From IMG/VR virus record IMGVR_UViG_3300001529_000023, positions 1 through 11,654 of that record: a stretch of 11,654 nt of DNA. One strand, given 5' to 3'. The translations under genes were made by a program, and so were the position numbers. This DNA comes from a virus. A model generated the notes under the pieces. That model made no database searches, had not been told where the DNA came from, and saw only the letters and a program-made list of their open reading frames with translations. How positions within the stretch are numbered: position 1 is the stretch's first letter; every line of letters begins with the position of its first letter. Positions 1 through 570 of this stretch are shown here, piece by piece.

Positions 1-570
1 ATCGACGTTTCCAGAAATTCCCTTTACTTTTCCTTTGCTAGAGTATTGATGATAAATACAGTCATAATGAGGAACATCATTATAATCGGCAAGCCATATT
101 ATATATTTTTTTATTGTTGAAGCATCATACCAGTTTTTATAATAATCTTGGTTTAAATAAAATCCAGCTTTGTATCCTTGACTTTCAATATAATCACAAA
201 AGGCATTTGTAAAATCAATACAATTAGTTCTTGTTAATTTAATACCTTTCTTTTTGGCACTATTTACTGTATCATATTCAAAATCATAGAAAATAATAAT
301 ATCTTTACCAAGGCCCGCCTCTTCAACGTTTTTAATGCAAGACTTAGCTTCTTTTATTGCGTCATTTTTATTTAATGCATACGCAAAATGATATACGCCA
401 TGAATAGCAATGCCCGCATCTTTAAATTTTTTTACATTTGTTAAGAAATGCTTATCTATTGCTTGTCTATATCCCTATCTAATAATGACAAAATCTATCC
501 CATCATCCTTAACTTTTTTAGCGTCTATATTTCCTTGCCATTGAGAAATATCTATACCTTTTAAAGTCAT
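1..570 (-). CDS. GH25-family lysozyme (phage endolysin) catalytic domain. Start at 570; the 3' end runs off the window. One in-frame TAG (475-477) is read as sense.
   Basis: The reverse-complement translation from the ATG at 568-570 is MTLKGIDISQWQGNIDAKKVKDDGIDFVIIR-TAG-GYRQAIDKHF...FYDFEYD...IWLADYN...HQYSSKGKVKGISGNVD. This matches GH25 signatures: GxDxSxxQG, the catalytic D/E pair in FYDFEYD, and a QY...G..G.VD tail. Apart from the single TAG, the frame is open to position 1. The RBS AAAGGAG lies 8 nt upstream of the ATG. The ORF track does not list it because the TAG breaks the ORF. Confidence 0.8.

Follow-up and report, generated by a model that had tools for sequence, protein, structure and literature searches.

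Stop-codon recoding in phages, including its lysis-gene aspect, has already been published. For phages with a code unlike that of their hosts, Borges et al. (bioRxiv 10.1101/2021.08.26.457843) reported no reassignments other than those of TAG to Gln and of TGA to Trp, and across the literature searched phage recoding was described as giving UAG the meaning Gln and UGA the meaning Trp or Gly. The phage phAss-1 was reported as TAG = Gln. The Lak study recorded that TAG sometimes aligned with Glu and attributed this to GAG-to-TAG mutation, and TAA/TAG to glutamate has been mentioned in the literature as a known code and was there seen as contamination. Here we analyzed an 11,654-nucleotide stretch of viral DNA (positions 1 to 11,654 of IMG/VR record IMGVR_UViG_3300001529_000023; hereafter the window), which carries part of an endolysin gene with an in-frame TAG. 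What is new is the amino acid: comparison with related sequences indicates that UAG in the window's phage most likely inserts Glu by means of a phage-encoded suppressor of the tRNA-Glu type. The literature searched, coverage of which was incomplete, yielded no phage in which UAG had been reported as Glu.

The phage shares several properties with the code 15 phages described to date (crAss-like phages, Lak, phAss-1, and the clades of Borges et al.). In all of them TAG is found mainly in genes for structure and lysis while a large block remains TAG-free, a tRNA(CUA) is encoded by the phage, the genome is AT-rich (32% GC for the window's phage), and close relatives use the standard code or recode TGA. 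The differences lie in the inferred residue, Glu rather than Gln, and in the suppressor, which is of the tRNA-Glu rather than the tRNA-Gln type. phAss-1 is a distant relative, with a tail protein 42% identical and with gyrase, DNA polymerase III alpha, and other genes in common. We take the source of the window to be a ~140-kb Herelleviridae-like phage with a gut or rumen Bacillota host.

Glutamate is the meaning of UAA and UAG in the peritrich ciliate nuclear code (NCBI table 30). That code is eukaryotic and nuclear and reassigns UAA as well, whereas the present one is viral, its host is presumed to use the standard code, and most genes still end in UAA (11 of the 12 complete ones). The suppressor also invites comparison with E. 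coli supE and with engineered tRNA-Glu(CUA), being likewise a normal elongator tRNA with its anticodon changed to CUA. Unlike classical amber suppressors, it is a conserved, syntenic gene of a phage tRNA array that would serve hundreds of sense TAGs.

The endolysin features of the window are as follows.

1 to 570, minus strand: N-terminal part of the endolysin, 190 codons, GH25 muramidase domain (from the translation and Pfam PF01183)
475 to 477, minus strand (read 477 to 475): in-frame TAG at endolysin codon 32, context IIR-TAG-GYRQ, a sense codon, most likely for Glu
576 to 580, minus strand: Shine-Dalgarno-like AGGAG, 5 nucleotides 5' of the endolysin ATG, identified by reading the sequence and kept in relatives

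The open reading frame (ORF) begins with the ATG at 570-568 and stays open for 190 codons up to window position 1, with one in-frame TAG. An earlier note, made from the window alone, had described it in these terms and called it a GH25 enzyme, and the profile match agrees. PF01183 (Glyco_hydro_25) aligned with residues 6-185 over its entire length (profile 1-180 of 180; E=2.7e-27), scoring 96.7 bits against a Pfam gathering score of 27. The acidic residues expected of a GH25 enzyme (an N-terminal Asp, a DxE motif, and a C-terminal Asp) are present in the sequence, in GIDIS, FYDFE, and GNVD. The Glu of FYDFE falls opposite the single residue, E or Q, that distinguishes the otherwise matching LytC chains 2ww5 and 2wwc, a residue that we interpret as the catalytic Glu in the DxE motif of GH25 enzymes. 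The LytC alignment reaches the last Asp of the window's endolysin fragment.

On ~140-kb contigs of the same phage, the whole endolysin comprises 490 codons encoding GH25, CHAP, and C-terminal domains and contains nine in-frame TAGs (the full-length gene was read in L081-L083 and L085). Like GH25 endolysins and autolysins in general (LytC 2ww5, Psm 4kru, Gp26 4jz5), it matches the profile over its full length and has a holin immediately upstream. Unlike known GH25 endolysins, it joins the GH25 + CHAP + C-terminal architecture to nine recoded codons. Identity to any endolysin of the GenBank phage collection was at most 41.5%, and megablast of the whole window against GenBank phages gave no match. 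The earlier note had also placed the TAG at an ordinary GH25 residue. Indeed, codon 32 is an ordinary, variable, non-catalytic position: its column held Ala 64 times, Glu 28, Ser 9, and Gln 4 in 120 database homologues, and Leu, Ser, and Ala in solved structures.

The TAG in the endolysin is almost certainly translated. Related endolysins, 79-83% identical to that of the window, are encoded by 12 IMG/VR contigs, and every one of them has TAG at codon 32. Further TAGs occur in these genes, at codon 10, 51, or 84 and also in the C-terminal half, with protein sequence conserved beyond each TAG. When TAG was read as sense, the fraction of the family's 20-kb loci covered by ORFs of at least 150 codons rose from 0.29-0.68 to 0.81-0.92.

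The competing explanation, that the endolysin is a pseudogene or that its TAG is a sequencing or assembly error, draws on the fact that the standard code interrupts the ORF. However, the TAG and its surrounding context are identical in eight independent assemblies (four from ENA, three from Logan, and NCBI GCA_001684375.1) that match the window at 96.5-100% identity. The codon is also retained in 12 relatives about 20% divergent in protein, in which the downstream sequence is conserved, and the catalytic motifs are undamaged. The 12-relative conservation and the eight matching assemblies led us to reject this explanation, which we regard as having next to no chance of being correct. The endolysin is intact and not a pseudogene.

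Much of the earlier note's argument for a sense TAG at 475-477 is upheld by these results. It had pointed to TAG as a sense codon on the opposite strand, where a plus-strand tail gene proved to be open only with its 19 TAGs read as sense. It had named two observations that would overturn its reading, relatives with a sense codon at this site and no other TAG usage, or disagreement with the assembly; the relatives all carry TAG and the assemblies agree. Its appeal to exactly one lesion did not hold up. A single TAG is true only within the window and is an effect of the window edge, because the complete gene holds nine.

The residue most often found opposite TAG was Glu. In alignments of the window with its relatives, TAG occurred in at least one member at 78 columns, where other members had Glu in 42, Asp in 17, Asn in 14, and Gln in 13. 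With a substitution matrix derived from the same alignments, Glu was favored over Gln by 77 log-likelihood units within the family. A tail-protein search was used to collect a wider clade of standard-code, TAG-recoded, and TGA-recoded members, and the TAG sites of each recoded locus were then aligned to the standard-code members. Glu was the best fit for the window and for L082, L089, L090, L092, L094, L011, L016, and L007. The same method returned Gln for L098 and L104, which provided a built-in positive control. Loci L301-L380 represent a second, independent genome region, in which only loci with enough sites were scored. There, Glu fitted better than Gln in 28 of 28 close-family loci and was the best fit overall in 27 of the 28, whereas Gln was the best fit for all 31 of the more distant TAG-recoded relatives. 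Across both regions, distant TAG-recoded relatives fitted by Gln number 33.

Individual endolysin codons gave evidence free of ascertainment bias. Among 68 viral homologues with a sense codon at codon 32, examined at the DNA level, 41 encode Glu, 19 Ala, six Thr, two Ser, and none Gln. At codon 84, 44 of the 68 encode Glu. Three columns occupied entirely by Glu (dUTPase 95, ThyX 4, and ThyX 146) were discarded, as the patterns used to fetch those loci themselves contained Glu. Solved structures offer an unbiased, weaker view of the dUTPase motif-3 site, with Glu, Glu, Glu, Thr, and Thr. Taken together, the alignments suggest that a large family of rumen and gut phages (contigs of ~130-146 kb) likely reads UAG as Glu, and that other members of the clade read it as Gln.

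These data bear directly on the proposal that the phage uses ordinary code 15, with TAG = Gln and with the Glu alignments produced by tolerated Glu-to-Gln changes through GAG-to-TAG mutation. Gln is the only TAG reassignment reported for phages with a code unlike the host's, and public gene calls of the family give Q at TAG. However, one method yields Gln for 33 other relatives and Glu for every sufficiently sampled locus of the family. Under code 15, TAG would be expected to align with Gln and the suppressor to derive from tRNA-Gln. Here, the 68 sense-codon homologues have 41 Glu and no Gln at codon 32, and the family's suppressor has a D-arm motif found only in tRNA-Glu, as detailed below.

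No tRNA lies within the window. Walking along the 142-kb contig of a relative, we found no tRNA and no Rfam match in the first 71.5 kb, a stretch of tail genes, the lysis cassette, gyrase, ligase, ThyX, replication genes, DNA polymerase III alpha, NrdDG, and dUTPase. The tRNA array lies beyond the end of the tail-fibre module, in a block of mostly TAG-free ORFs with homing endonucleases. Arrays were read in eight family genomes (L325/L384, L308, L320, L383, L386, L388, L390, and L511), and the L325/L384 contig also carries endolysin locus L011. The fuller arrays comprise 17-28 tRNAs. Each of the eight arrays contains one tRNA(CUA) and no more, located between tRNA-Val(UAC) and tRNA-Ser(GCU) in all five arrays in which both neighbours were readable. 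Loci that hold tRNA(CUA) and late genes together were best fit by Glu.

The tRNA(CUA) of L325 scored 53 bits with the Rfam tRNA model. Its longest matches among annotated phage records were tRNA-Glu genes (prophage Lj928 and Enterococcus phage phiSHEF13), with 75% identity to the Lj928 tRNA-Glu. Read by eye, the two share G1-U72, A73, U11-A24, a 3-bp D-stem, and a 4-nucleotide variable loop. The D-arm motif TGGTCAAGCGGTT(N)AAGAC was placed with a sample of 120 loci from bacteria, most of them Bacillota. All 113 called tRNAs with the motif were tRNA-Glu (88 UUC, 24 CUC, and one ambiguous), no other isotype carried it, and eight further occurrences fell outside any called tRNA. The L383 suppressor has the exact motif and the L325 suppressor is one base off, whereas one phAss-1 suppressor (suppressor 2) has a D-arm as in tRNA-Gln. 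A scan with the exact suppressor pattern returned only three viral contigs, because the tRNA(CUA) sequence varies within the family. The tRNA(CUA) most likely derives from tRNA-Glu through an anticodon change from UUC or CUC to CUA. That the family's sole tRNA(CUA) has a tRNA-Glu-type rather than a tRNA-Gln-type D-arm argues against Gln.

The label 'tRNA-Pyl' assigned by ARAGORN raises the possibility that UAG encodes pyrrolysine. This label is given to every CUA anticodon and is the only indication of that kind. The tRNA(CUA) is an ordinary cloverleaf with a tRNA-Glu D-arm, the TAG columns show Glu rather than Lys, and no pyl genes were seen in the regions viewed, which were covered without a systematic scan or a complete genome. 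Pyrrolysine was rejected on the canonical tRNA-Glu-type cloverleaf and on the presence of Glu, not Lys, at TAG columns, and we assign it a negligible probability.

Two observations were made within or beside the arrays. At L308 10668-10739 (minus strand), a tRNA with a UCA anticodon (ARAGORN 'SeC') closely resembles the tRNA-Arg(UCU) of the array and could be an opal suppressor in a phage already recoding TAG. In L325, a TAG-free protein with DUF2828/DUF7788 (vWA-like) domains at 3981-5489 (minus strand) adjoins the tRNA array. At least 7,996 homologues of this marker were counted in the database at E<=1e-50, among the 8,000 candidates sharing most words, which were the only ones scored; public metagenomes therefore contain this phage group in great abundance.

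A conserved 104-residue protein of the family provides a further site at which Glu and Gln can be compared. Its Pfam matches are weak, all under gathering score, and are to metallopeptidase families. In L310 and L511-L515, TAG replaces the Glu of the HExxH motif (VLCH-TAG-ITH). Among 120 database clusters of the protein, 63 read HEITH and 54 read HQITH. Where the DNA behind HQITH was checked (three distinct sequences, six loci), it was TAG in all three, so that Q in these sequences is a product of the gene-calling pipeline. More generally, the public gene calls checked for the family render TAG as Q, as a code 15 gene caller would. Database entries with Q at a DNA TAG are P0241-P0357 (the 54 of 120 clusters) and P0015. 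A TAG at the HExxH Glu that 63 other clusters keep as Glu is difficult to reconcile with Gln.

Several points weigh against Glu. Endolysin codon 10 is CAA (Gln) in the window and TAG in 11 relatives. Amino acid composition is less decisive for the window's family than for the Gln group: the latter gives a clean result, with TAG at 0.78% and a Gln deficit of 0.78%, and in the window's family TAG stands at 1.13% with deficits of 0.43% for Glu and 0.26% for Gln, a result that favors Glu weakly. The likelihood differences overstate the evidence, because sites inherited by several loci are not independent. The suppressor is known from relatives and not from the window's own genome, and among homologues of two proteins that neighbour the tRNA array none came from the contigs of the window's phage (139,964, 140,477, and 118,286 bp). 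The charging of such a tRNA is a further concern. Glutamyl-tRNA synthetase (GluRS) normally reads the anticodon, and engineered E. coli tRNA-Glu amber suppressors are largely charged with Gln by glutaminyl-tRNA synthetase (GlnRS). A host containing GlnRS could thus give Gln.

Codon 10 and the absence of a clear Glu preference in the composition test are also what ordinary code 15 would lead one to expect. Set against the per-locus results, the HExxH site, and the D-arm of the suppressor, they leave Gln as an unlikely reading. Decoding might instead be mixed, with the suppressor charged partly with Glu and partly with Gln, for instance if a non-discriminating GluRS attaches Glu that is then amidated in part, or with low-efficiency readthrough competing with release factor 1 (RF1). 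The Gln share at TAG-aligned sites within the family (5-13%, against 5% expected for a pure Glu codon) and the division of the composition deficits between Glu and Gln fit such a scheme, as does the failure to find a gene for a release factor or synthetase in the regions viewed, where most of the walked ORFs were not scanned with Pfam. However, endolysin codon 10 alone supplies most of the excess Gln, sites conserved in standard-code relatives are overwhelmingly Glu, and the 19-22 TAGs in a single tail gene call for efficient decoding. We consider mixed decoding slightly less probable than Gln.

Our data best fit a model in which Glu is inserted at UAG by the phage's own tRNA. The TAG at endolysin codon 32 and the eight further TAGs would be translated by a phage amber suppressor derived from tRNA-Glu, which host GluRS would charge with Glu. 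GatCAB would not amidate this Glu, as it recognises tRNA-Gln features missing from tRNA(CUA). The anticodons of Glu (YUC), Gln (YUG), and amber (CUA) tRNAs all have U35. Many Bacillota are without GlnRS and rely on a non-discriminating GluRS followed by GatCAB. A host without GlnRS would avoid Gln charging of tRNA-Glu(CUA), and with GatCAB ignoring it the tRNA would therefore stay charged with Glu. The suppressor would build up before the late genes need it. Because UAGs lie inside the gene, full-length endolysin would have to await the supply of suppressor tRNA.

The remaining features of the window place the endolysin within a larger division between TAG-free and TAG-containing genes.

591 to 619, minus strand: terminator-like hairpin with a T-run, between the holin and the endolysin, overlapping the holin stop codon
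604 to 834, minus strand: r1t-type holin, 76 amino acids, no TAG (Pfam PF16945, E=1.8e-15)
893 to 8060, minus strand: TAG-free gene block with g140, metallophosphoesterase, AAA_33 kinase, g185, RNA ligase, small ORFs, a major vault protein (MVP)-like protein, and g183
8217 to 11123, plus strand: tail/baseplate-module protein, 968 amino acids, 19 TAGs, open only with TAG as sense (PHROG 30026)
11129 to 11653, plus strand: N-terminus of a tail protein, 175 codons, 1 TAG (PHROG 32343 and 1887, tail)

Within the window, the endolysin and the two tail genes contain 21 TAG and 69 GAA/GAG codons, and the other twelve genes, holin included, contain 0 TAG and 206 GAA/GAG (Fisher p=2.3e-12). The 12 complete genes of the window end in TAA (11) or TGA (one), and none ends in TAG. 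Orthologues of the 968-residue tail protein carry 17-22 TAGs each, and the same division between TAG-free and TAG-rich genes was observed for those orthologues of relatives that could be aligned. Enterocloster phage PMBT24 has a homologue of the second tail protein (11129 to 11653), which carries the annotation baseplate hub. Beyond the structural genes, relatives have TAGs in NrdD (4), dUTPase (3), RuvC (5), and an exonuclease (10-13), none of which is a classical late gene. TAG is concentrated in tail, lysis, homing-endonuclease, and some nucleotide-metabolism genes, and a large block of other genes is free of it.

Two groups of genes in the TAG-free block deserve description. The 829-residue protein at 4979-7468 (minus strand) matches the major vault protein shoulder (PF11978, E=2.5e-23) and a vault repeat (PF17795) and has no TAG. 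Its only relatives in GenBank phages, at 39-43% identity, are in huge phages of 462-735 kb (LR756500, LR756501, and LR756503). A metallophosphoesterase, an AAA_33 (polynucleotide-kinase-like) kinase, and an RNA ligase (PF09414 + PF21189) are clustered at 1415-4271 (minus strand), immediately upstream of the cassette for lysis. The cluster is conserved and TAG-free in relatives and resembles a repair set for RNA or tRNA.

The holin lies upstream of the endolysin, with 34 nucleotides from its end to the endolysin start, and this order is kept in relatives. At least 11 public contigs encode the holin, including three of 118-140 kb, and its orthologues lack TAG in 10 of 11 relatives. The hairpin at 591-619 was the one such site observed in the scan, where 0.1 were expected. 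Each of the 10 relatives examined retains it, with both arms of the stem changed in ways that maintain pairing, and it could possibly form a second layer of control on lysis.

The earlier note had proposed that dependence on amber suppression gates lysis to a late time. This restates a published hypothesis, in which translation of recoded lysis genes has to wait for the change of code and the timing of lysis is controlled in this way (Borges et al., bioRxiv 10.1101/2021.08.26.457843). The nine endolysin TAGs, the TAG-free neighbouring genes, and the location of the suppressor among mostly TAG-free ORFs are consistent with such a gate. Against it stand the holin, which is without TAG, and the TAGs of NrdD, dUTPase, RuvC, and the exonuclease. 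Holins usually set the timing of lysis. Suppressor dependence may delay or safeguard lysis; that the endolysin TAG acts as a timing gate is, on these genomic patterns, a proposal we find nearly but not quite as plausible as its converse.

Several observations concern the wider clade (contigs of ~100-200 kb), which mixes standard (L095-L111, L333-L369), TGA-recoded (L112-L115, L117), UAG = Gln (L098, L104, L336-L380), and UAG = Glu members. The genetic code seems to have switched several times among these relatives. The densest recoding seen was in an ORF between DNA ligase and ThyX, with 17-21 TAGs in ~320 codons (L016 19023-20006; L127 9057-10001). The L081 gene at the corresponding place matches GIY-YIG (homing endonuclease), and the ORF recalls an intron endonuclease for which Borges et al. 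described heavy recoding. At L083 14820-18230, a gyrA-like gene was called in two pieces (169 and 608 amino acids) around an intervening ORF with weak GIY-YIG and HTH_7 matches. The insertion is not in L081 or L082, which suggests an intron or mobile insertion. Finally, a tail-fibre-like gene of 1289 amino acids at L293 13232-17098 has no TAG, in contrast to its TAG-containing neighbours, and is overlapped by many long spurious ORFs on both strands. It may have been acquired recently from a source that uses the standard code.

If UAG is indeed read as Glu, these phages would represent a new natural variant of the genetic code, and related phage lineages would differ in what UAG means. Public databases would then be wrong at every TAG position in the proteins of an abundant family, giving Q for E; the key Glu of HExxH, shown as Q in 54 of 120 database clusters, would be one example of a residue misread in this way. 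The comparison suggests a simple route by which such a difference could arise, as in hosts that form Gln-tRNA by way of a non-discriminating GluRS and GatCAB the outcome could hinge solely on whether GatCAB accepts the suppressor. The natural tRNA-Glu(CUA) would be a resource for genetic-code engineering. For the phage, the endolysin, by its predicted function, would be a lysis gene whose production depends on the supply of a suppressor tRNA.

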